In this document: piece after piece, positions 5,376 through 58,929 of the stretch
How the letters are laid out: each line of letters opens with the position of its first letter
How positions within the stretch are numbered: the first letter of the stretch is position 1
NCBI GenBank assembly: GCA_050945795.1
Contig: JBMNTP010000001.1
Coordinates: 166,879 to 230,878 of the forward strand
Length of the DNA stretch: 64,000 nt
Direction: 5' to 3'
Source: Christensenellales bacterium
GTDB lineage: Bacteria; Bacillota; Clostridia; Christensenellales; MGBC116941
Notes under the pieces: model-generated
The model's database searches: none
Told to the model about the DNA's origin: nothing
The model's input: only the letters and a program-made list of their open reading frames with translations
Translations under genes and position numbers: made by a program

Positions 5376-6341
5376 TTACTTTTTAAGAGAATCATAGTCA
5401 TGCGACTGCTGCTCTTTTCTTTCCTCCATGCGCTTTTTGCGCCTCTTATCCGATGCCTTTACTAAAACAAGCGCGATAGCTATTATGCCGCCTATAAGCA
5501 GTATATACGGTAGCACAGACACTATAAATATAAGCAAGTCACCGAGCATGTCGACAAAATCGCCGTAAGAGCTCAAAACGGTCTGCGTGAATTTGGTGCC
5601 GTAATCGCCTTCGCTGGTTTCAACAGTACTAAGCTTTACTACCTCTTTAAGCTCAAGCTGTACAGTGCTATAATCTACTAGCGCATCAATCTTTTTAAGA
5701 GAGGAAGTATTTGCCTCTATCTGATACAATACGTCGGCTATCTCTTTTTCCAGCTCTATTATATCTGAAAGCTTTGAAGATGTTGTAAGTATGCTTTCAA
5801 GCCTTTCAAGCCTTATCTTTAAAGTGGCTACCCGCGCCTCTGTATCGACATATTCGCTGGTTCTATCCTCTCCGCTTTGATTCTTGTTTATAACAATGAA
5901 GTTCTTTTCAATTGCTTCAAGAAAGCCGCCGTAATTGCCGCTCGGCACTCTGGCTACTATATAAGCGTAACGGGTCTCATCCGCCCTGTTTATAGGCTTT
6001 TTGCCATGCACCTCTGATTTTTCAATATATCCTCCGGCTATCTCTATGGAGTTTTCCAGCTTTTCAATATCTATATCATACTGTTCCGTCTCGATGCTAT
6101 AGCTTGCCCTTCTGATAATTTTCCTTTGGCTTTCCGGTATGCCCGCGACAATACCCGAACTATTTTCCACTTCTCCCGCCGCGTCATCCCATCCGGCCTC
6201 CGGCGCTTCGGCTTCTCCTGTCGCCTGCGGAGCTTGAGGCGCCGCCGAGCCGGTATCATATGCTGGAGCAGCGGAGCAGCCCGACATTATAAGAATAAAA
6301 ACCATCAGCAGCGCAGGCAGAATGAACCATTTCCGTTTCAT
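5376..6341 (-). CDS. DUF4349-like lipoprotein with C-terminal TM anchor
   Basis: I trimmed the start to the ATG at 6341 (MKRKWFILPALLMVFILIMSGC lipobox), which is preceded by GGAGG. There is a low-complexity linker, then IIRRASYSIETEQYDIDIEKLENSIEIAGGYIEKSEV and a coiled coil, then a terminal TM helix. This is the DUF4349 architecture. Confidence 0.65.
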   Translation of the reverse strand: MKRKWFILPALLMVFILIMSGCSAAPAYDTGSAAPQAPQATGEAEAPEAGWDDAAGEVENSSGIVAGIPESQRKIIRRASYSIETEQYDIDIEKLENSIEIAGGYIEKSEVHGKKPINRADETRYAYIVARVPSGNYGGFLEAIEKNFIVINKNQSGEDRTSEYVDTEARVATLKIRLERLESILTTSSKLSDIIELEKEIADVLYQIEANTSSLKKIDALVDYSTVQLELKEVVKLSTVETSEGDYGTKFTQTVLSSYGDFVDMLGDLLIFIVSVLPYILLIGGIIAIALVLVKASDKRRKKRMEERKEQQSHDYDSLKK

Positions 6342-8539: not shown

Positions 8540-9016
8540 TCAATTCACCTTTTTCACAACTACTCTGCGCCCTTCAACCTTCTCAACTATAACCTGACTG
8601 CCGGCTTCTATAAATTCGCCCTCGCTTACAACGTCTATCTTGCGACCGGCTATTTCCGCTACGCCCGCCGGCCTTAGCGCTGTAGTCGTATTGCCCTCCG
8701 AGCCTATAAGCGCAGATAAATCCTCGTTTGACATGTAACCTGCGTCCTTGACAAACCGCTCTTTTAGTATCAGCTTTGATTTAGTCATCCTTCCGGTAGC
8801 CGCCCGCCACATTATAAAGCCGAATGCGGCACCTATCACCACTAAAAGCAGCGCGATAATAAGCACAGCCTCCAAGAGGCTGCCCGATTGCAAAAACACA
8901 CCGACTATAAGCATTATTATACCCAAAGAACCGGCAACTCCAAAGCCGGGAATATTCATTTCTATAATCAGTAGCGCCAGCCCTATAACAAAAAGCAGTA
9001 TAGCCCATATATCCAT
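8540..9016 (-). CDS. NfeD family protein (short form)
   Basis: From the ATG at 9016: three TM helices, then a C-terminal OB-like domain (ALRPAGVAEIAGRKIDVVSEGEFIEAGSQVIVEKVEGRRVVVKK). It is the canonical upstream partner of FloA. Confidence 0.8.
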   Translation of the reverse strand: MDIWAILLFVIGLALLIIEMNIPGFGVAGSLGIIMLIVGVFLQSGSLLEAVLIIALLLVVIGAAFGFIMWRAATGRMTKSKLILKERFVKDAGYMSNEDLSALIGSEGNTTTALRPAGVAEIAGRKIDVVSEGEFIEAGSQVIVEKVEGRRVVVKKVN

Positions 9017-9156
9017 AATGCAGCCCCCTTCCGCCACGCCTAACTGCGCCCCCAGCGCATTTTATTGCTTTTTTAGTATACCATATTCATCAGATATATT
9101 AAACTTTATTCTGCCTTAAAGGCACACATTCCTTTTCAAAATTGACAGATATAGAA

Positions 9157-9734: not shown

Positions 9735-10469
9735 TCATTCGCCCTCCTTAAATACTCCGAGAGGATAATAAGGAACCATATCGCTCTCCACCCATTTAAG
9801 CGCCTCAACAGGAGACATTCCCCAGTTTGTCGGGCAGGTTGACAATACCTCTATCATGGTAAACCCCTTGCCCTCCATTTGATATTTAAACGCCTTTTTA
9901 ATAGCCTTCTTAGCCTTTATAACATTCGCCACCGTATTGACCGCCACGCGCTCTATATAGTAAGCGCCTTTTTGAGTAGAGAGCATTTCGCTCATCTTTA
10001 GCGGATACCCGTTGTGCTCTTCAGCGCGTCCGTAAGGCGATGTCGTTGTCTTTTGGCCTATAAGCGTCATAGGCGACATCTGCCCTCCCGTCATGCCGTA
10101 TATGGCGTTGTTTATAAATATGGTGGTTATTTTCTCACCCCGCCCGGCGGCGTGTGTTATCTCGGCGGCTCCTATCGAAGCGAGGTCGCCGTCGCCCTGA
10201 TATGTAAACACCACCGCATCATTATGCACCCGCTTTATACCGGTAGCTACAGCCGGCGCGCGGCCATGGGCCGCCTCCTGCATGTCAAAATTAAAATATT
10301 TATACGCAAACACAGCGCATCCTACCGGAGCCACGCCTACAATCTTATCCGCGCCTAGCTCCTCAAGGCTTTCGGCAACCAGCCGGTGGACTATGCCATG
10401 CGTGCATCCGGGACAATAATGCATTGTAACATCGGTAAGGTACGGGGTCTTTTTAAATACTGTCGCCAT
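9735..10469 (-). CDS. 2-oxoacid:ferredoxin oxidoreductase, beta (TPP-binding) subunit
   Basis: HYCPGCTHGI Cys motif and GDGDLASIGAAE TPP-binding motif. 244 aa. Confidence 0.9.
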   Translation of the reverse strand: MATVFKKTPYLTDVTMHYCPGCTHGIVHRLVAESLEELGADKIVGVAPVGCAVFAYKYFNFDMQEAAHGRAPAVATGIKRVHNDAVVFTYQGDGDLASIGAAEITHAAGRGEKITTIFINNAIYGMTGGQMSPMTLIGQKTTTSPYGRAEEHNGYPLKMSEMLSTQKGAYYIERVAVNTVANVIKAKKAIKKAFKYQMEGKGFTMIEVLSTCPTNWGMSPVEALKWVESDMVPYYPLGVFKEGE

Positions 10470-31263: not shown

Positions 31264-31346
31264 TGGTGCGGTCACCGGGACTTGAACCCGGATGGTTGCC
31301 CACACGCCCCTCAAACGTGCGCGTCTGCCAGTTCCGCCATGACCGC
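31264..31346 (-). tRNA. tRNA-Leu (anticodon GAG), CCA encoded
   Basis: Hand-folded. Acceptor stem GCGGTCA/TGACCGC, D arm GCG..CGC, anticodon stem CACGT/GCGTG with loop TTGAGGG, long variable arm, T arm CCGGG-TTCAAGT-CCCGG, discriminator A, then CCA. Confidence 0.9.
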
Positions 31347-38620: not shown

Positions 38621-38706
38621 GCCGAAGTGGTGGAATGGCAGACGCGCCGGACTCAAAATCCGGTGTCCGCGAGGACGTGTGGGTTCAAGTCCCACCTTCG
38701 GCACCA
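38621..38706 (+). tRNA. tRNA-Leu (anticodon CAA), CCA encoded
   Basis: Hand-folded. Acceptor stem GCCGAAG/CTTCGGC, anticodon stem CCGGA/TCCGG with loop CTCAAAA, long variable arm, T arm GTGGG-TTCAAGT-CCCAC, discriminator A, then CCA. Confidence 0.9.
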
Positions 38707-41231: not shown

Positions 41232-41334
41232 AAGAAGCAAATATTACAGATTGCCTTTTTTCCTCGCTATATTTTTAATCTACCCCATGCGCACATTACT
41301 TCTACTATGCAGCAGACTATTTTTTAGTGGCATA

Positions 41335-41363
41335 TTGACAAGTCTTTTATATAATGTTAAAGT
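41335..41363 (+). promoter_or_regulatory. candidate sigma-A promoter of the T-box operon
   Basis: TTGACA (41335-41340), a 17-nt spacer, then TAAAGT (41358-41363), about 25 nt upstream of T-box Stem I. Confidence 0.35.
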
Positions 41364-41384
41364 ACACTTGAAAAAGAATATGCA

Positions 41385-41656
41385 AACCGTTGATGCAGAG
41401 AAAAATCGGTAACGACCGGCAGCCGAAATGGCGAACGGTTCTGATCCTCCCAGAGAGCGGGCGATGGTGTGAATCCCGCAGGTGATGCCGAATAATATGG
41501 ACTGCAGAGGGCGGCGTTAAATGCGCCGACGCTAGACCCGCGTAAGAGGTCAGGGATATGCTGGTATCCTGTAAGAGAGCTTTTTTTGAAGCTAAAACAA
41601 GGTGGCACCGCGGATTATTTCGCCCTTGATTGTTTAATACAATCGAGGGCTTTTTT
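41385..41656 (+). promoter_or_regulatory. T-box leader (tRNA-sensing riboswitch), specifier UGG = Trp
   Basis: The Stem I base CC-GTTGA-TGCAG (41387-41398) pairs with CTGCA-GA-GG (41502-41510), forming the GA/K-turn motif. The AG bay is AGAGAG (41452-41457) and the distal loop is GGTGTGAA (41466-41473). TGG (41498-41500) plus the conserved A (41501) abuts the basal helix. The T-box sequence is AACAAGGTGGCACCGCGG (41596-41613). The terminator is GCCCTTGATTGT/ACAATCGAGGGC (41622-41650) followed by T6. Confidence 0.85.
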
Positions 41657-41680
41657 ATTGGAAAGGGAAAGAATATTATT

Positions 41681-42661
41681 ATGAGTAAAAATAAAGTGTA
41701 TGAAAACAAAGTTGTAATTATAGGCGCCGGGCATGTCGGCTCACACTGCGCTTTAGCGCTCGCCACGCAGGAGCTGTGCAAAGAAATTATCCTTGTGGAT
41801 ATTAACAATGCCAAAGCTTCAGCTCACGCGGAGGACATCGCCGACGCGCTTATATTCCCCTGCCGCCATGTATCTGTGCGCCAGGGCGAGCTTAAAGAAT
41901 GCGCCGACGCCGCCATCGTCATAATAGCGATTGGTCAGCCGTATCGGCAGGGGCAGACCCGCCTTGATTTAATCGATGATTCTATTCGCATGATTCACGA
42001 GCTAATAAACGACCTTCGCGCTGTCGACGTTGGCGGCATCGTTATAACTATCACAAATCCCGCCGACATAGTGGCAGACTATGTGCGCCGGGGGCTCGGT
42101 CTTCCTCGTGAGCGGGTTTTTAGCACCGGCACATTGCTTGATACAGCGCGCCTAGTACGTATTTTATCTAATAAGAGCGGTGTTAGCCCTTCCTCTATAC
42201 AGGCTTATGTAATGGGCGAACACGGCGCTTCCGCTATGATTCCCTTTTCGCTGGCGCGTATAGGAGCTCTTGATTATAAAGCATATGGCATAGATAAAAA
42301 GTACGTGCTTGAGCTTACCCGCTCTATAGGCATGGAGATTATAGGCGGAAAGCTAAGTACGGAATTCGGTATAGGTCAGGTCAGCGCTATGCTGTGCCGC
42401 TGTATACTGCGCGATGAAAAGCAGATACTGCCGCTTTCGGTGCTGCTTGATGGAGAATACGGCCAGCATGATCTACATGCCGGAGTGCCCTGTCGAGTCG
42501 GGCGCGGCGGTGTGGAATCCATAATCGAACTGCCGCTTACAACCGAAGAACAAGCCATGTTCGATAACTCTTGTGATGTGATACGCCGCTACCAACATCG
42601 CGCCTTCGAGATAGCGCCTCTTGATCGTCGATGGCGAAGCGATAAATCAGATAAGCGGTAA
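41681..42661 (+). CDS. L-2-hydroxyacid dehydrogenase of the LDH/MDH family (substrate uncertain)
   Basis: ATG at 41681. Rossmann motif VVIIGAGHVGS; substrate loop GQPYRQGQTRLDL; ITNPADI; GTLLDTAR (Arg171 equivalent); GEHGAS (catalytic His). The ORF-track start at 41630 lies inside the T-box terminator. Confidence 0.85.
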   Translation: MSKNKVYENKVVIIGAGHVGSHCALALATQELCKEIILVDINNAKASAHAEDIADALIFPCRHVSVRQGELKECADAAIVIIAIGQPYRQGQTRLDLIDDSIRMIHELINDLRAVDVGGIVITITNPADIVADYVRRGLGLPRERVFSTGTLLDTARLVRILSNKSGVSPSSIQAYVMGEHGASAMIPFSLARIGALDYKAYGIDKKYVLELTRSIGMEIIGGKLSTEFGIGQVSAMLCRCILRDEKQILPLSVLLDGEYGQHDLHAGVPCRVGRGGVESIIELPLTTEEQAMFDNSCDVIRRYQHRAFEIAPLDRRWRSDKSDKR

Positions 42662-42700
42662 ATAATATTTGAATTTTTATATATTGAAAGAGGTATTTCT

Positions 42701-43684
42701 ATGAAAACCAAGAATATAGTCGTATTCCTGCTCATCTTTATTATGAGCTTTACAATTTTAACCGGCTGCGCATCAAACGGCGAACAAAAGATGCGGGTAG
42801 CAATAGTGCAGCCCATGAGCCACACCTCGCTTGACCAAATCCGCGACACTATAGTAGCGGAACTTGGCGACGAGTATGACATTACGCTGCTAAATACCAA
42901 CGGCGATAACTCGGCATTGGCAACGGTTTTTCAAAACGTCAAAAGCCAAAACATTGACATCGTAATCCCCATAGCCACTTCCGCCGCGCAGAGCGCCAAA
43001 ACTGTTTTTGAGGGCAGCAATACGCCCATAGTATTTTCCGCCGTTTCCGATCCTGTTTCCGCCGGGCTTACCGGCGACGATGCGAAAAACATCACCGGCA
43101 TCTCAAACAATATACCGGCTGATGAAATCGTTAAATTGATTTCGAATTTCCAGCCCGACTATAGCAAAATCGGCTTTCTCTACACTTCAAGCGAAGTAAA
43201 TTCCGTTTCTACCATAAACGCCGCTAAAGCATACTGCGATGAGAACGGCATCGCTTATGAGGAAGCCTCCATCGCCGAGTTGCGCGACCTGCCCACCGCC
43301 GTCAACACCCTCATTTCAAAAGGCGTTGACGCGCTGTACACCGGCAACGACAACGCCATCGCCTCGGCTATGCTCGTTTATACCGATCTCGCTTATGGCA
43401 AGAAAATACCGGTATACTGCGGTGCCGATTCTATGGTTTCGGATGGCGGCTTTGCTACTATCGGCATAGATTATGTTGAGCTGGGCAAACAGACGGCTGA
43501 ACTCGTTAAAAAAATCGCCGGCGGCGAAAAGCCCTTCGATCTGCCCTATACGGTTTTGACAGAATACGTCCGCTTTGTAAACCTGCAGGCCGCCAATCGC
43601 CTAGGTCTTTCGCTAAGCGAAAGTATGCTTGAAGAGTATGAAATCCTGGTTGAAAAAGACGGCACAAGTCACTTTGGGAAATGA
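42701..43684 (+). CDS. ABC transporter substrate-binding lipoprotein (ABC_sub_bind / COG2984 family)
   Basis: Lipobox LTGCAS. RVAIVQPMSHTSLDQIRDTIVAEL...IVIPIATSAAQSA...PIVFSAVSDPVSAGL is typical of the COG2984 family. Confidence 0.85.
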   Translation: MKTKNIVVFLLIFIMSFTILTGCASNGEQKMRVAIVQPMSHTSLDQIRDTIVAELGDEYDITLLNTNGDNSALATVFQNVKSQNIDIVIPIATSAAQSAKTVFEGSNTPIVFSAVSDPVSAGLTGDDAKNITGISNNIPADEIVKLISNFQPDYSKIGFLYTSSEVNSVSTINAAKAYCDENGIAYEEASIAELRDLPTAVNTLISKGVDALYTGNDNAIASAMLVYTDLAYGKKIPVYCGADSMVSDGGFATIGIDYVELGKQTAELVKKIAGGEKPFDLPYTVLTEYVRFVNLQAANRLGLSLSESMLEEYEILVEKDGTSHFGK

Positions 43685-43693
43685 GGCAAAAGC

Positions 43694-44641
43694 ATGGATT
43701 ATATTGGAATGCTGCTTTCGGCAGTAGGGCAGGGTCTGCTATACGCGCCTATGGCAATGGGCGTTTATATAGCTTTTAGGATATTAAAAACGCCCGACCT
43801 TACAGTTGACGGCAGTTTTGTGTTCGGCATGACGGTATGCGCCGTTATAACTGTAGCCGGGCATCCCCTTTTGGCTATACCGGCCGGCGTAGTGGCCGGA
43901 GCAATTGCCGGATGGATAACCGGCGTACTTCAAACAACGCTCTGCATTAACGCCATACTCTCCGGCATACTCACCATGACAGGGCTGTATACCATAAACT
44001 ACGCCATATTAGGCGGCCAGTCTAATCTGTATTTACAGCATATGGTAACAGGCCAAGGCGGCACTCAAACGCCGGAAGCCAGCGTTACGATTTATCGGCT
44101 GTTTGCTTCGGCATTAGACCTCGGCGCGTACAGCGAGCCTATACTTACAGCGCTTATTACGGCGGCTGTGGCGGCGGTGTTGATAGTGTTTTTCAAGACA
44201 CACCCCGGCATGGCTATTAGAGCCACAGGCGATAATGAGGAGATGGTGCGCTCCTCCTCTATAAACGCCGGACAGGCGCGCCGCACCGGTATTATGATGG
44301 CTAACGCGCTTGTCGGCCTTTCAGGCGCTCTGCTATGCCAGCAGCAGCGTTACGCCGACCTATCGAGCGGCAGCGGAACGCTGGTTGTAGGGTTGGCGTC
44401 GGTAATTATAGGGCTCGTGCTATTTGGCCGCCGCAGCGTAACGGCGGGTGTTCTTTCGGCTATCGTGGGTTCTTTGCTGTATCGCGCCATTCTCCAGGCC
44501 GCTTATCTTATAGATATGCCGAGCTACATGGTCAAGCTGCTTTCGGCGATTATAGTGGTGTTCGCCCTTACGCTGCCTCTTATCAAAAAAAAGGCGCAGG
44601 CGGCAAACACACGCCAAAAAGCACGAAAGGAGGCGGAGTAA
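43694..44641 (+). CDS. ABC transporter permease (COG4120 family)
   Basis: 315 aa with about 8-9 TM helices. The N-terminus GQGLLYAPMAMGVYIAFRILKTPDLTVDGSF is typical of this family. It is contiguous with the binding protein and the ATPase. Confidence 0.85.
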   Translation: MDYIGMLLSAVGQGLLYAPMAMGVYIAFRILKTPDLTVDGSFVFGMTVCAVITVAGHPLLAIPAGVVAGAIAGWITGVLQTTLCINAILSGILTMTGLYTINYAILGGQSNLYLQHMVTGQGGTQTPEASVTIYRLFASALDLGAYSEPILTALITAAVAAVLIVFFKTHPGMAIRATGDNEEMVRSSSINAGQARRTGIMMANALVGLSGALLCQQQRYADLSSGSGTLVVGLASVIIGLVLFGRRSVTAGVLSAIVGSLLYRAILQAAYLIDMPSYMVKLLSAIIVVFALTLPLIKKKAQAANTRQKARKEAE

Positions 44642-45448
44642 ATGGCGTCATATCTGGATTTCCAAAGCCTTAATAAGCGCTTTGAGCCCGGCACCATAAA
44701 CGAAAAGATAGCGCTTGATAATTTTACATTAAAAGCCCCTAAAGGCGATTTTATAACCATTCTTGGCTCAAACGGCGCCGGCAAATCGACGCTCTTTAAC
44801 GCTATCCTAGGAAAATTCCCTCTCGATAGCGGTAAAATACTTGTCGATGGCGAGGATATTACATATCAAAAGGATTATAGGCGGGCGCTCAATATTGGCT
44901 GCCTGTTTCAAGATCCGTTGCGCGGCACAGCTCCAAATATGACCATAGAGGAAAATCTGGCGCTGGCTTATACGCGCAAATCCTCACGATCGCTTTTCGC
45001 GGTCAATCGCAAGAATACAGCGGTGTTCCGCGAATGGCTGTCAACACTCCATATGGGGCTTGAAGACCGCATGAAAAGCAAGATGGGCACGCTCTCAGGC
45101 GGCCAGAGGCAAGCCGCCGCGCTGTTGATGGCGACAATTGCCCGCCCCAAATTGCTGCTGCTTGACGAGCACACCGCCGCGCTTGATCCGGCGGCGTCTG
45201 AAAAAGTACTGCGCATCACAAAAGATATTGTCGCAGAGCACGGGCTTACAACGCTTATGATAACGCATGATATGAATTACGCGCTTGAATGCGGCAACAG
45301 GACTATTGTTATGGATGCCGGCCGCCTTATATTGGACATACAAGGCGACGAGCGCCGCAACATGACCCCACTAAAACTCACCGATATGTTTATAAACGCC
45401 ACAAAGAGCATTCTGACCGACCGCAGTATGCTAACAAGCCGCCAATAA
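44642..45448 (+). CDS. ABC transporter ATP-binding protein (COG1101 family)
   Basis: Walker A GSNGAGKST, signature LSGGQRQ, Walker B LLLLDEHTAALD. The start abuts the permease stop. Confidence 0.9.
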   Translation: MASYLDFQSLNKRFEPGTINEKIALDNFTLKAPKGDFITILGSNGAGKSTLFNAILGKFPLDSGKILVDGEDITYQKDYRRALNIGCLFQDPLRGTAPNMTIEENLALAYTRKSSRSLFAVNRKNTAVFREWLSTLHMGLEDRMKSKMGTLSGGQRQAAALLMATIARPKLLLLDEHTAALDPAASEKVLRITKDIVAEHGLTTLMITHDMNYALECGNRTIVMDAGRLILDIQGDERRNMTPLKLTDMFINATKSILTDRSMLTSRQ

Positions 45449-45467
45449 CAAAAGCATATACCCAAAA

Positions 45468-45500
45468 GCCCGAAAAGCATTTTATCTTTCGGGCTTTTTT
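45468..45500 (+). terminator. terminator of the T-box operon
   Basis: GCCCGAAAAG-CATTTTAT-CTTTCGGGC followed by TTTTTT, 20 nt after the ATPase stop. Confidence 0.8.
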
Positions 45501-45855
45501 GCTTTACTCATTATACCTCCACGCGCGCGCCGCATTGGCTGCGCCCTTCCCGCCCGCCGTTTATTGGCTGCTTAGCCCCGCCATTTCAAACAGATGTATC
45601 CATATCCCATACATTATGCACGCATCGCATTGATATTATCGCAGTGCAGCCTTGGGGTTTATATACAAAACTATCTTATATCTTGTCCATATCAGCCCTA
45701 AATTTCCATGATGATTGACATTCAGGCTAAAATTGTTTAAGCTTTGAAACAAGTTCTATAAATCACCAGGCTTATAAAATCATATTTATATATACAATCG
45801 CGTGACAAATCCGATTTTAGGCGTGTGCTTTGGGTAAGCTTTAAGGAGTATACTT

Positions 45856-46542
45856 ATGAATAAAAAGAAATTTTCATCTGAGCTGGCTCTCGTTTTGGGT
45901 CTGCTGTTAAATAGTTTGGCGGTGGCTTTTATGGCGCAAAGCGATTTTGGTGTCTCCTCGCTGACGAGTTTCCCTCTGGCGCTGAGCTATTTGCTGCCGC
46001 GGCTTAGCTTTGGAATGTGGAGCTTTCTATGGCAAGTTCTCGCCATAGCGATGCTTATAATCATGACAAGAAGCTTTCGCTGGGGATATCTTATCTCCTT
46101 TTTTATCGGCAGTATATTCGGCTATTTGCTGGACCTCTTTACTCCGCTTTTATCCCATCTGCCGCAGATGCTGCCCTTGCGCATATTATATTATGTAATC
46201 GGTATGCTGATTTTATCGATAGGCATCAGCCTGCTTTTGCGCTGTCGCCTGCCAATTTTGCCATTCGAGACATTTATACGTGGGGTATCGTCACATTTTA
46301 ACTGGCCTGTTAAATGGATTAAAACAATCTATGACTGCACCAGCGTATTGCTAGCGCTCCTCACATCGCTCCTTTTTGGGCGATTGGTCGGTGTAGGCAT
46401 CGGCACCATCGCCAGCGCGCTTATGCAAGGAACTCTAATACAGCGCAATTTCCGCTTTCTTGATAGCCGCTTTACTTTTGAGGCTACCGTGCCTCAGATT
46501 GGACGCTTTATTGAGATGGAAGAGCGAGAAAAAAGCGCATAG
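45856..46542 (+). CDS. YczE/YitT-like integral membrane protein
   Basis: 228 aa with 5-6 TM helices. The N-terminus ALVLGLLLNSLAVAFMAQSDFGVSSLTSFPLAL resembles the YczE (DUF6198) family. AAGGAG RBS. Confidence 0.6.
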   Translation: MNKKKFSSELALVLGLLLNSLAVAFMAQSDFGVSSLTSFPLALSYLLPRLSFGMWSFLWQVLAIAMLIIMTRSFRWGYLISFFIGSIFGYLLDLFTPLLSHLPQMLPLRILYYVIGMLILSIGISLLLRCRLPILPFETFIRGVSSHFNWPVKWIKTIYDCTSVLLALLTSLLFGRLVGVGIGTIASALMQGTLIQRNFRFLDSRFTFEATVPQIGRFIEMEEREKSA

Positions 46543-46764: not shown

Positions 46765-47553
46765 TCAAAGTATCGTTACATTGTGCGCCGCCGCCTTATC
46801 TCTAAGCGACGCCGGCAATTCTAAAGGATCTACTTCGGTAATAAGATAATCATAATCGCCTATATCGGCAAAAGTATACGCATACACCCTGCCTATTTTT
46901 GAAGTGTCAAAAAGCATGGCAGACTGCTTAGCCTTTTGCGTTACTAGCGTCTTTATCTGATGCTCGGTTTCGTTGCCGCATGTACAGCCGTAATCGTTGG
47001 CGTATCCGGTGCTTACTACAAACGCAAACTCAATATTAATCGCCGCCAGCATTTCCATAGTAGTTGCGCCCGATAAAGCGAGATTGGTTTTATTGAGTAT
47101 GCCGCCGCACAACGTTATTGTTAAGAGCGGATTTTTAGAAAGCTCAAGCGCCGTATTAGGGCCATTTGTAATAATGTTGCAGTTAACATTCGGAGCTACT
47201 TTCGCCAACTCAATCGCCGTTGTTCCGGCGTCGATGAATACGCTTTTTTTATTATCCAGCAGAGAAAGCGCCTTTTGCGCTATAGTCCGCTTGGCCTCTT
47301 TGTTAACCCCTTCTCTTGCCGAAAAGACGGCTACTGTTTTTTGCATTAATATAGACTTTTGCTCATCAGCCGCGTTTATTCGCCTCGCGCCGCCGCGCAC
47401 CTTTACCAGCAGCCCTTTTTCCTGAAGATAAGATAAATCCCTGTGAATAGTCATAGTGCTTACGTCGGGAAACAATTCGGAAAGCTGATCTATAGTCACA
47501 AGGTCTTTAGACTTTACAAAATCGTATATTTTTTCTCTGCGGATGCTGTTCAT
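46765..47553 (-). CDS. DeoR/GlpR family transcriptional regulator
   Basis: From the ATG at 47553: MNSIRREKIYDFVKSKDLVTIDQLSELFPDVSTMTIHRDLSYLQEKGLLVKVRGGA (DeoR HTH), then a DeoR-C sugar-phosphate-binding domain (IFIDAGTT...). The longer TTG-initiated ORF adds 15 aa. Confidence 0.8.
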   Translation of the reverse strand: MNSIRREKIYDFVKSKDLVTIDQLSELFPDVSTMTIHRDLSYLQEKGLLVKVRGGARRINAADEQKSILMQKTVAVFSAREGVNKEAKRTIAQKALSLLDNKKSVFIDAGTTAIELAKVAPNVNCNIITNGPNTALELSKNPLLTITLCGGILNKTNLALSGATTMEMLAAINIEFAFVVSTGYANDYGCTCGNETEHQIKTLVTQKAKQSAMLFDTSKIGRVYAYTFADIGDYDYLITEVDPLELPASLRDKAAAHNVTIL

Positions 47554-47817
47554 ATGTGAAATATCCTTTGCAACCGATTCATAATTCATGGATCGCAATT
47601 TAGATTTATGTATTGAATTATAACATTTTAAAACAAATCCGTCAATATTTCTCCAATCTCGCTCCTCATTAAATCAGTGCCCCGCGCCCATCACGCCACA
47701 CCCTTAACTGTTGGGCACTCTTAATACCCGCATACTTGTCTTTCATTATAATATCCTCCGCTAACACGCCGCTTGTTATCAAGCGTATAAATCATGCTTT
47801 AATTCGTTTATATATGA

Positions 47818-48024: not shown

Positions 48025-49059
48025 ATGGCAAAAATCAAGGTTGGAGTAGCGGGATACGGAGTAATCGGGCAGCGCCTCGCCGACGGCGTGGCGTTACAGG
48101 GCGATATGGAGCTTGTTGGCATAGCCGATCTTGCGCCGACGCTGTCAATCCGCGCCCTTCATGAAAAAGGCATGCCATACGACCTTTATCTCGTCGACGG
48201 CGCTGATAAAAGCAAATTCGACGCTCTTGGCATGCCCGTCGCCGGAACATTTGAGGAATTGGTCGGCAAGGTAGATATAATGCTCGACAGTTCGCCCGGC
48301 GGTGTAGGCGTGAAGAATAAAGAGCTGTATGCGAAAAAAGGCGTTAAGGCTGTTTTCCAAGGTGGCGAGCAGAATTCTGTAGCCGACGTGTTTTTCCACG
48401 GCTACGCCAACTATGAAAAAGGCTTAGGGGCAAACTACCTCAAGCTTACCAGCTGCAACACCACCGGACTTATTCGAGTCGTAGACTGCCTCGATCGCGC
48501 CTGCGGCCTTGAAAAGGTAGCTATAACCATAATACGCCGCGTCGCCGATCCCGGCGATTATCACCGCGGCCTTACAAACGCCCTTCAGATGGAGAAGGCG
48601 CCGAGCCATCAGGCGGTAGACCTTATGACAATCATGCCGCATGTTAGCGCAACAGGCATACTCGTGCATACACCGGTAACGCACGGCCACATTATAACAG
48701 TACTCGCGAGCGGCAAAAACGGCAGCAAAATCAGCAGAGAAACAGCTCTTGAGGTGCTATCAAAACACCCGCGCATACGCATCGTCAGCATGGACGACGG
48801 CTTTCTCGGCAACGCCAGCCTTTTCCGCTATGCCCGTGATTTAGGCAATCCGCGCGGCGATATGTATGAGATTGCCTTGTGGGAAGACAGTGTTGTAGAA
48901 AGCGGAAACGATGTTATGTTCGCTATAAATATACCGCAAGAAAGCGTTACAATACCCGAAAGCATAGACGCTGTGCGCGCGGCAATGCAGATGCAGCCGA
49001 GTCGCGAAGAGGGTACTACGGCTACTAATAAATACCTCGGAATAGGAAAATGGATGTAA
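48025..49059 (+). CDS. gap: type II (archaeal-type) glyceraldehyde-3-phosphate dehydrogenase
   Basis: MAKIKVGVAGYGVIGQRLADGVALQGDMELVGIAD..., catalytic SCNTTGL, IIRRVADPGD, and the tail ESVTIPESIDAVRAM. It aligns by eye along its whole length with Pyrococcus/Methanococcus-type GAPDH rather than bacterial GapA (no SCTTNC motif). Confidence 0.85.
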   Translation: MAKIKVGVAGYGVIGQRLADGVALQGDMELVGIADLAPTLSIRALHEKGMPYDLYLVDGADKSKFDALGMPVAGTFEELVGKVDIMLDSSPGGVGVKNKELYAKKGVKAVFQGGEQNSVADVFFHGYANYEKGLGANYLKLTSCNTTGLIRVVDCLDRACGLEKVAITIIRRVADPGDYHRGLTNALQMEKAPSHQAVDLMTIMPHVSATGILVHTPVTHGHIITVLASGKNGSKISRETALEVLSKHPRIRIVSMDDGFLGNASLFRYARDLGNPRGDMYEIALWEDSVVESGNDVMFAINIPQESVTIPESIDAVRAAMQMQPSREEGTTATNKYLGIGKWM

Positions 49060-58852: not shown

Positions 58853-58929
58853 GTCTCCGTAGCTCAGCAGGATAGAGCGTCCGCCTCCTAAGCGGAAGGC
58901 CTTGGGTTCGAATCCCGACGGGGACGCCA
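58853..58929 (+). tRNA. tRNA-Arg (anticodon CCT), CCA encoded
   Basis: Hand-folded. Acceptor stem GTCTCCG/CGGGGAC, D arm GCTC-AGCAGGATA-GAGC, anticodon stem TCCGC/GCGGA with loop CTCCTAA, T arm TTGGG-TTCGAAT-CCCGA, discriminator G, then CCA. Confidence 0.9.

Follow-up and report, generated by a model that had tools for sequence, protein, structure and literature searches.

Why would a dehydrogenase of the lactate dehydrogenase/malate dehydrogenase (LDH/MDH) superfamily be encoded by the first gene of an operon for a tryptophan-type transporter? This question is raised by a locus in a 64,000-nucleotide stretch of a Christensenellales bacterium genome (contig JBMNTP010000001.1; the whole stretch is referred to below as the window), in which a T-box leader is followed by genes for an NAD-dependent 2-hydroxyacid dehydrogenase and for a substrate-binding protein (SBP), a permease and an ATPase resembling those of the TrpXYZ ATP-binding cassette (ABC) system. 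As judged from the leader anatomy and from comparative support in related loci, the unit is a four-gene operon under the predicted control of a T-box transcription attenuator that senses tRNA-Trp. T-boxes as such, those for Trp, and TrpXYZ systems under T-box control (trpXYZ having reportedly been named by Vitreschak et al. in 2008) are already known; the conserved dehydrogenase partner and its non-homologous replacement in a sister operon are the aspects that would surprise a specialist. The locus comprises the following features:

41335-41363, + strand: promoter-like site with -35 TTGACA, a 17-nt spacer and an extended -10 TGnTAAAGT (pattern scan; 10 of 12 positions matched, TG present)
41381-41656, + strand: complete transcriptional T-box leader, from Stem I to the U-run of the terminator (RF00230 match and covariation in homologous leaders)
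41387-41511, + strand: Stem I, with GA/K-turn base, specifier loop, AG bay and distal loop (covariance-model alignment, minimum free energy fold and covarying basal helix)
41414-41440, + strand: lineage-specific extra hairpin in the 5' strand of Stem I (insertion in the covariance-model alignment)
41452-41457, + strand: AG bay AGAGAG (CAGAGAG in the covariance-model alignment)
41463-41473, + strand: distal loop GAUGGUGUGAA (covariance-model alignment)
41498-41501, + strand: specifier UGG (41498-41500) and its 3' A (41501), with AAUAUGGA as the 3' side of the specifier loop in the covariance-model alignment
41597-41628, + strand: T-box sequence and antiterminator, CAAGG (41598-41602) with CCUUG (41624-41628), and inner helix 41610-41614 with 41619-41623
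41622-41656, + strand: intrinsic terminator of the leader, a 12-bp stem (41622-41650) followed by UUUUUU (pattern scan; -22.9 kcal/mol, z -3.8)
41681-42661, + strand: LDH/MDH-superfamily NAD-dependent 2-hydroxyacid dehydrogenase, 326 aa (PF00056, 1.6e-29; PF02866, 3.2e-24)
42701-43684, + strand: TrpX-like ABC SBP (PF04392, E 6e-61; 3lft, E 1.7e-41)
43694-44641, + strand: TrpY-like ABC permease, BPD_transp_2 (PF02653, E 1.8e-26)
44642-45448, + strand: TrpZ-like ABC ATPase (PF00005, E 3.2e-30)
45464-45503, + strand: operon terminator, a perfect 12-bp hairpin AAAAGCCCGAAA/TTTCGGGCTTTT followed by a T-run

The initial annotation of this DNA had described the dehydrogenase as "fused" to the ABC importer. 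No protein fusion was found, and the unit consists of four separate open reading frames (ORFs) with intergenic gaps of 39, 9 and 0 nt. Behind the Trp T-box, a PF04392 SBP, a BPD_transp_2 permease and an ABC ATPase stand in TrpXYZ order, and the permease and the ATPase were kept in all related loci. The statement in the annotation that COG2984-type ABC systems correspond to TrpXYZ was correct (PMC9382623).

With default settings, an Rfam scan of the whole 64-kb window returned two tRNAs only and no T-box. A permissive Rfam scan of positions 41250-41750 matched RF00230 to 41381-41630 (+) over the full length of the model (1-219), with 66.4 bits and an E value of 2.7e-14. The default scan missed this T-box because its score lies below the Rfam gathering score of 93 bits for RF00230, and the low score is mainly due to an insertion of approximately 30 nt in Stem I. 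Homologous leaders scored 67-98 bits on the same model; most leaders of the group fall below the Rfam gathering threshold, so that annotation pipelines applying the gathering score miss them. Sub-threshold T-boxes (66-92 bits) were located at 41381-41630 in the window, and in related loci at 5696-5947 (L081), 367-618 (L082), 8850-9095 (L018) and 1298-1575 (L098).

All features of a complete T-box leader that had been read from the letters (GA/K-turn base, AG bay, distal loop, T-box sequence and alternative terminator and antiterminator) were recovered at the same coordinates. In the covariance-model alignment, the base of Stem I reads UGAUG...AGAG (GA motif), and Stems II, IIA/B and III were also resolved. 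The T-box core is AAGGUGGCACCGCGG, and the bulge UGGC that had been placed at 41603-41606 was present in the alignment. Further, the proposed pairing of CAAGG with CCUUG (CCTTG in the DNA) in competition with the terminator was borne out by alignment and folding: the antiterminator (CAAGG/CCUUG plus GCGGA/UUCGC around the bulge) folded once the 3' half of the terminator was withheld, and antiterminator and terminator share 41622-41628, hence they are mutually exclusive. An RNAalifold analysis of 21 homologous leaders gave 52 pairs, 33 of them with compensatory double changes; the pairs of the terminator stem covary in this set, as does the basal Stem I helix (U-A vs C-G, plus whole-helix swaps). 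Related leaders also carry TTGACA...TATAAT at the position equivalent to the promoter-like site of the window.

The specifier was read by a rule that is also used in TBDB, i.e., codon, one unpaired base, closing helix (PMC7778990). By this rule, the covariance-model alignment that had been called for placed UGG at the specifier position, in line with the original assignment, and the helix CUGCA closes the specifier loop directly after A41501. For the comparison, one genome per species was scanned with the dehydrogenase and metagenomes were scanned with the SBP, while exact-protein look-ups added L081 and L082. Approximately 30 loci with the gene order of the window were found in Christensenellales, Oscillospiraceae, Lachnospiraceae, Anaerovoracaceae and spirochaetes, so that the leader-ldh-ABC arrangement recurs in related genomes, where it was to be looked for. 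In all Firmicute loci with enough upstream sequence, the T-box core GGUGGNACC lies upstream of the dehydrogenase gene. UGG invariantly precedes the last unpaired base of the specifier loop in all of the approximately 27 T-box leaders, and it does so on seven different closing helices (GCAG/CUGC, AUGG/CCAU, ACGG/CCGU, GCGG/CCGC, GAGG/CCUC, AAAG/CUUU and GAAG/CUUC). The notion that a purine always follows the specifier triplet did not hold in the relatives: UGG is followed by A in the window and in L002, L005, L082 and L083, and by G in Lachnospiraceae-type leaders, but many Oscillospirales leaders have U or C there, able to pair with the base next to the 5' strand of the helix (A with U; G with C in L017). 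The bulge of the homologous leaders is mostly UGGC and in a few UGGU; U occupies the variable bulge position in 46% of Trp T-boxes and forms a wobble pair with G73 (PMC7778990). A tRNA-Trp gene, which would give the discriminator base, was found neither in the window nor in 42 related loci. The tRNA genes of the window are those for tRNA-Leu(GAG) at 31264-31346 (-), tRNA-Leu(CAA) at 38621-38706 (+) and tRNA-Arg(CCU) at 58853-58929 (+).

It seems extremely improbable that the leader senses a tRNA other than tRNA-Trp, for instance tRNA-Met via AUG or tRNA-Asn via AAU. AUG does overlap UGG in most leaders, pairing of the base after UGG in many relatives would make the last unpaired purine the second G of the triplet, and tRNA-Asn has G73. 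However, AUG and AAU, which had already been judged the less consistent triplets, are not conserved across the leaders (L003 and L081 read AAGUGGG, and have GUGG with neither AUG nor AAU there), and the covariance-model alignments of five leaders all place UGG at the codon position. The UGGC bulge pairs with G73, whereas Met tRNAs have A73, and the regulated transporter belongs to the TrpX family. AUG (Met) was therefore ruled out as the specifier by GUGG in L003 and L081, by the UGGC bulge and by the covariance-model alignments. The trpXYZ leader of Streptococcus suis, which has been experimentally validated and is induced at low Trp, shares the UGG specifier and the UGGC bulge (PMC9382623). 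We regard the assignment of the leader to Trp as nearly certain.

The trpXYZ units of S. suis and S. pneumoniae thus have in common with the window a transcriptional T-box with UGG/UGGC and the gene order SBP-permease-ATPase. They differ from it in that they have no dehydrogenase gene, that their SBP has Asp and Gln where that of the window has Asn and Tyr, and that the leader of the window has an extra Stem I hairpin. Induction by Trp limitation has been demonstrated for S. suis trpXYZ (PMC9382623).

How constant is the dehydrogenase as a partner of the transporter? Of the 19 relatives closest to the dehydrogenase in reference genomes (53-62% identity), 18 had TrpX/Y/Z homologs (60-70% identity) directly downstream and on the same strand; the hosts of these relatives comprise Spirochaetaceae/Treponema, Lachnospiraceae, Oscillospiraceae, Anaerovoracaceae, Pseudoflavonifractor and others. 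In metagenomes, the dehydrogenase was found upstream of the SBP in each of the nine close SBP relatives with enough upstream sequence, and L081 and L082 have the same dehydrogenase-transporter arrangement as the window. When all ORFs of 21 loci were clustered, no fifth gene recurred beside the unit. The spirochaete loci L001, L011 and L013 (Spirochaetaceae/Treponema) keep the four genes, and no T-box was detected upstream of the block in these three loci at E <= 0.001. That the block is kept in spirochaetes without the T-box suggests that it moves as a unit, and suggests horizontal transfer of the dehydrogenase-TrpXYZ block to a phylum in which its regulation is different.

A sister operon, found with its T-box in two loci, has an unrelated dehydrogenase in the equivalent slot:

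L018, 7422-9095, - strand: GldA-like Trp-T-box operon
L098, 1298-3906, + strand: GldA-like Trp-T-box operon

The T-boxes of L098, from a gut metagenome (91.8 bits), and of L018, from Oscillospiraceae (81.5 bits), have UGG+A at the specifier position and the bulge UGGU. In both loci, the place of the LDH-like gene is taken by a gene for a 362-aa GldA-like iron-containing alcohol dehydrogenase (Fe-ADH; PF00465; NF006941, 205-216 bits against a cutoff of 336), after which come genes for a TrpX-like SBP of the Asn type, a permease and an ATPase. A gene for a Dabb-domain protein precedes the GldA-like gene in L018; in L098, a shikimate-kinase-like gene (717-1253) lies just upstream of the T-box. 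The pair of GldA-like dehydrogenase and SBP, again with a TrpX-like ABC system of the Asn type, is also present in L097 and L099, where the available sequence stops short of the T-box site. This non-homologous enzyme replacement is the strongest indication that an oxidation step would be functionally coupled to the uptake system.

The dehydrogenase of the window is 100% identical to P0001, which carries the database name "lactate/malate family dehydrogenase". Its best match among solved structures is the L-LDH 3wsv (E 5e-58) and its best solved relatives are L-LDHs. Nevertheless, it scores below the L-LDH equivalog cutoff (TIGR01771, 290.9 vs 303.55 bits) and below all MDH cutoffs (229.8 vs 283 and 158 vs 351.85 bits; TIGR01763/PRK06223). 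Alignments showed that its clade retains the catalytic residues Arg109, Asp168, Arg171 and His195, of which Arg171 binds the substrate carboxylate in the LDH family. Residue 102 selects the substrate side chain, Gln specifying pyruvate (LDH) and Arg specifying oxaloacetate (MDH). Gln102 is replaced in the clade, by Tyr in the window (GQPYRQGQTR vs GxxQKPGxTR in LDH), and the residues found at this position in 120 homologs were Arg (104), His (6), Trp (4), Pro (2) and Tyr, Phe and Cys (1 each). Canonical L-LDHs (TIGR01771; PDB 3wsv, 3d0o and 1ldn) thus share with the window enzyme the fold, both Pfam domains and the catalytic residues, but they have Gln102 and a fructose 1,6-bisphosphate (FBP) site with Arg173 and His188, which are lost in the clade; in addition, AAY (235-237) and ATYY (245-248) around their substrate pocket have changed to xGM and STEF in the clade, respectively. 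LDH-like MDHs share the superfamily with the window enzyme and Arg102 with most clade members; they differ in that the window has Tyr102, 15 of the 120 members have a residue other than Arg, and the scores are far under the MDH cutoffs. We know of no MDH under Trp T-box control. On these features, the clade appears to be neither a standard LDH nor a standard MDH, and the interchange of Arg and aromatic residues at position 102 would fit cation-pi or pi-pi stacking on an aromatic ring rather than an obligatory carboxylate salt bridge.

A precedent for an LDH-family enzyme with an aromatic substrate is known from Bifidobacterium. The type-4 LDH (aromatic lactate dehydrogenase, Aldh) of this genus belongs to the L-LDH family, is distinct from the housekeeping LDH, prefers indolepyruvate over pyruvate and is not activated by FBP; it has no non-bifidobacterial homologs at 60% identity or above (PMC8556157). 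It resembles the window clade as an L-LDH-family enzyme. A preference of the window enzyme for indolepyruvate/indolelactate would have indirect support in the loss of Gln102 and of the FBP site and in the Trp T-box setting. Aldh differs in that it runs catabolically, from Trp to indolelactate, and in that its gene clusters with those for a transaminase and a haloacid dehalogenase and not with a transporter or a T-box.

The pocket of the SBP was compared with those of proteins of known ligand. The best NCBIfam match of the window SBP is TrpX (NF041285), with a score below the equivalog cutoff (245 vs 390 bits; 266-313 bits in relatives). The contact residues of S. suis TrpX (T108, A127, T129, D152, N233 and Q273; PMC9382623) were mapped onto it via the 3lft alignment, which gave a pocket of T, A, S, N, N and Y compared with T, A, T, D, N and Q in the Trp-bound protein, i.e., Asp is replaced by Asn and Gln by Tyr. 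The same T, A, S, N, N, Y pocket was present in all 31 LDH-linked SBPs, and the Fe-ADH-linked SBPs likewise have Asn at the D152 position, with Ser and Asp at the last two contact positions. SP1069 (Trp, 3lft), CD0873 (Tyr, 6hni) and VC_1101 (Phe, 3lkv) share their fold with the window SBP at 36-40% identity, and their contacts Thr, Ala, Ser/Thr and Asn are kept in it; Tyr at the Gln284 position of the window SBP is as in the Tyr and Phe binders (PMC6816091). All three crystal structures show Asp at the D152 position, in contrast with all dehydrogenase-linked SBPs, which have Asn there. A ligand that has no alpha-ammonium group would be in keeping with this loss of the sole acidic contact. The known ligands of PF04392 are L-Trp, L-Tyr and L-Phe only (PMC10443332).

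Both SBP types also occur together. In L094-L096, which have a Trp T-box and no dehydrogenase nearby, an Asp-type and an Asn-type SBP are encoded in tandem and share one permease and one ATPase. The T-boxes that drive these tandem TrpX-like SBPs (L094, 1732-5592; L095; L096, 1876-5702) have UGG+A and a UGGU bulge.

Taken as a working scheme, charged tRNA-Trp would let the leader terminate at 41622-41656, a switching behaviour that is taken over from the T-box family. With uncharged tRNA-Trp, the anticodon would pair with UGG at 41498-41500 and the NCCA end with the UGGC bulge; this binding would stabilise the antiterminator and allow read-through into the dehydrogenase, SBP, permease and ATPase genes. 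The TrpX-like ABC system would then import (S)-indole-3-lactate, possibly alongside Trp, the LDH-like enzyme with NAD+ would oxidise indole-3-lactate to indole-3-pyruvate, and a housekeeping aminotransferase encoded elsewhere would turn indole-3-pyruvate into Trp. To the proposal that the operon is such a Trp-salvage module, with indolelactate import, oxidation to indolepyruvate and transamination to Trp, we give about an even chance. The indolelactate-type salvage is strengthened, although still unproven, because this subtype of transporter has the dehydrogenase as an obligate partner, because the pyruvate-specifying Gln102 has been lost, because an unrelated dehydrogenase family fills the slot in the sister operon and because the SBP has lost the conserved ligand-contact Asp. 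As a minor supporting observation, the operon proteins are poor in Trp (3 Trp in 1253 residues vs a mean of 0.81% in the other 40 large ORFs of the window; binomial P = 0.009), as expected for proteins made under Trp scarcity. More tentatively, and with somewhat less than even confidence, gut and other anaerobes would share a widespread salvage of secreted indole-3-lactate that would be gated by uncharged tRNA-Trp and run through a TrpX-family pocket retuned from an amino acid to a 2-hydroxy acid and a dedicated enzyme of the LDH family or, in some lineages, of the GldA family.

Several points weigh against salvage of indolelactate. Oxidising a 2-hydroxy acid with NAD+ is thermodynamically unfavourable and would need the pull of transamination, and no aminotransferase gene recurs beside the operon in the 21 loci. 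Arg102, the classic MDH signature, is present in most clade members, which by their sequence may have malate/oxaloacetate activity. The GldA-like variant could point to an alcohol substrate that is not an acid. That Asp would pair with the alpha-amino group is our own reading, as the papers state ligand contact only. Finally, Asn occurs naturally at the D152 position in the TrpX homolog of S. pyogenes, the mutant of which is nonetheless impaired when Trp is low (PMC9382623).

This last point bears on an alternative, namely that the transporter carries Trp itself, like streptococcal TrpXYZ, and that the enzyme serves the Trp economy in another way, for example by reclaiming indolepyruvate/indolelactate formed in the cell or by acting on another aromatic 2-oxo or 2-hydroxy acid, internal or acquired separately, that is not the cargo of the transporter. 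We consider it unlikely. The SBP has TrpX as its best family match and the Trp-bound 3lft as its best solved structure, and four of the six ligand-contact positions are identical or conservative. Since Trp uptake is supported by the S. pyogenes homolog, which is of the Asn type (PMC9382623), Asn does not exclude a Trp ligand, and the Asp-to-Asn change was downgraded as proof of a non-amino-acid ligand. Similarly, Tyr at the Gln284 position had been taken as excluding Trp (PMC6816091) and was downgraded, as Asp-type SBPs behind Trp T-boxes have Tyr too. Import of Trp would, however, leave unexplained why a dehydrogenase, from two unrelated families, is always the first gene here and never occurs with the streptococcal Asp/Gln type (PMC9382623), and why SBPs of the Asp type and of the Asn type are retained together in tandem. 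Import of a different alcohol or hydroxy compound related to Trp and one oxidation step away from use (another aromatic lactate, a compound of the indole-glycerol type or a modified tryptophan), with indolelactate not being the physiological substrate, appears improbable. It agrees with the activity of the glycerol-dehydrogenase family, which the GldA-like enzyme resembles, on vicinal diols and secondary alcohols, with the variability of position 102 in the LDH-like clade and with the different SBP pockets of the LDH-like and GldA-like operon types. Yet the LDH-like enzyme keeps the carboxylate-binding Arg171, only a 2-oxo acid, among the oxidation products, could be turned into Trp by a single common reaction (transamination), and an LDH-family enzyme that prefers indolepyruvate is known (PMC8556157).

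It is very unlikely that the dehydrogenase is a malate or general lactate dehydrogenase without a functional tie to Trp, whose place in the operon would be an accident of history or that of an isozyme poor in Trp for starvation. Such an enzyme would explain Arg102 in most members, the strongest family scores, which are to LDH and MDH models, and the low Trp content of the operon proteins. Canonical LDHs, however, are Trp-poor as well, which leaves the idea of a Trp-sparing LDH isozyme weak, and the linkage is kept across at least five bacterial families and into spirochaetes while the flanking genes differ. Moreover, position 102 carries His, Trp, Tyr, Phe, Pro or Cys instead of Arg in 15 of 120 members including the window, which a true MDH could not tolerate, and an unrelated dehydrogenase stands in the equivalent slot of the sister operon.

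Few clues from sequence alone link a gene of unassigned function to one particular amino acid; T-box specifiers are among them, and here the Trp specifier points a whole unassigned "L-lactate dehydrogenase" clade toward tryptophan metabolism. This clade comprises at least 120 clusters at 90% identity, two of which hold over 1000 sequences each. The human-gut Lachnospiraceae Anaerobutyricum hallii and A. soehngenii are found in clusters of 1585 and 1022 member sequences. Indole-3-lactate is a major secreted product of bifidobacteria and lactobacilli. If the salvage of indolelactate proved true, this compound, which is studied mainly as a host-signalling metabolite, would also be a Trp source for butyrate producers and other anaerobes, and aromatic lactates would be a cross-fed amino-acid currency in the gut. 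An LDH clade would have an anabolic role, the ligand range of PF04392 would extend beyond the three aromatic amino acids to a first non-amino-acid ligand, and the automated annotations of the genes of the unit as "L-lactate dehydrogenase" and "tryptophan ABC transporter" would mislead. In the literature searched, no link of a Trp T-box or of TrpXYZ to a dehydrogenase was found, nor of PF04392 to a non-amino-acid ligand; no dehydrogenase is mentioned by Wels et al. (2008) or in the TBDB paper (PMC7778990). The literature searched also gave nothing relevant on indolelactate salvage or auxotrophy and nothing usable on Trp auxotrophy of Anaerobutyricum. The hypothesis is directly testable in cultured gut species, as A. 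hallii and A. soehngenii carry the unit.

The hairpin inserted in Stem I, which the initial annotation had placed at 41415-41439, is real and maps to 41414-41440. Placed on the way from the helix that sits above the specifier loop to the AG bay, it is an insertion of approximately 25-30 nt relative to RF00230 and to 12 related leaders, which are without it (25-29 nt against these leaders), and on its own gave a nested fold of -11.8 kcal/mol (z -2.5). The closest relative of the window, L082 (68% protein identity), has a hairpin of equal site and layout and of different sequence (GGCC..GCCC-UUU-GGGC..GGUCC vs ACCG..GCC-GAAAU-GGC..CGGU in the window). A nested hairpin with another sequence implies compensatory change and thus a maintained lineage feature, so that a one-off insertion was ruled out. 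An unrelated insertion of approximately 30 nt is present at the same model position in L098.

Beyond the operon terminator, and behind a 350-nt AT-rich spacer, the window carries a gene for a DUF6198/YczE-like membrane protein (45856-46542, +), which is not conserved beside the operon in other loci. Further downstream, a gene for a DeoR/GlpR-family regulator (46765-47598, -) is divergent from and upstream of a gene at 48025-49059 (+) for a type II (archaeal-type) phosphorylating glyceraldehyde-3-phosphate dehydrogenase (NF003251, 392.7 bits vs a cutoff of 185), here in a metagenome-assembled genome of a Firmicute. Two riboswitch matches were observed in related loci. On the Anaerovoracaceae chromosome of L005, a cobalamin riboswitch (9970-10173, +; 102 bits) lies directly 3' of the TrpZ homolog, and in L081 a match to the glycine-GGAnGA riboswitch variant (RF03166; 4062-4235, -; 79.1 bits against a gathering score of 110, E 7e-15) is located upstream of the glycine-cleavage genes gcvT/H/P.

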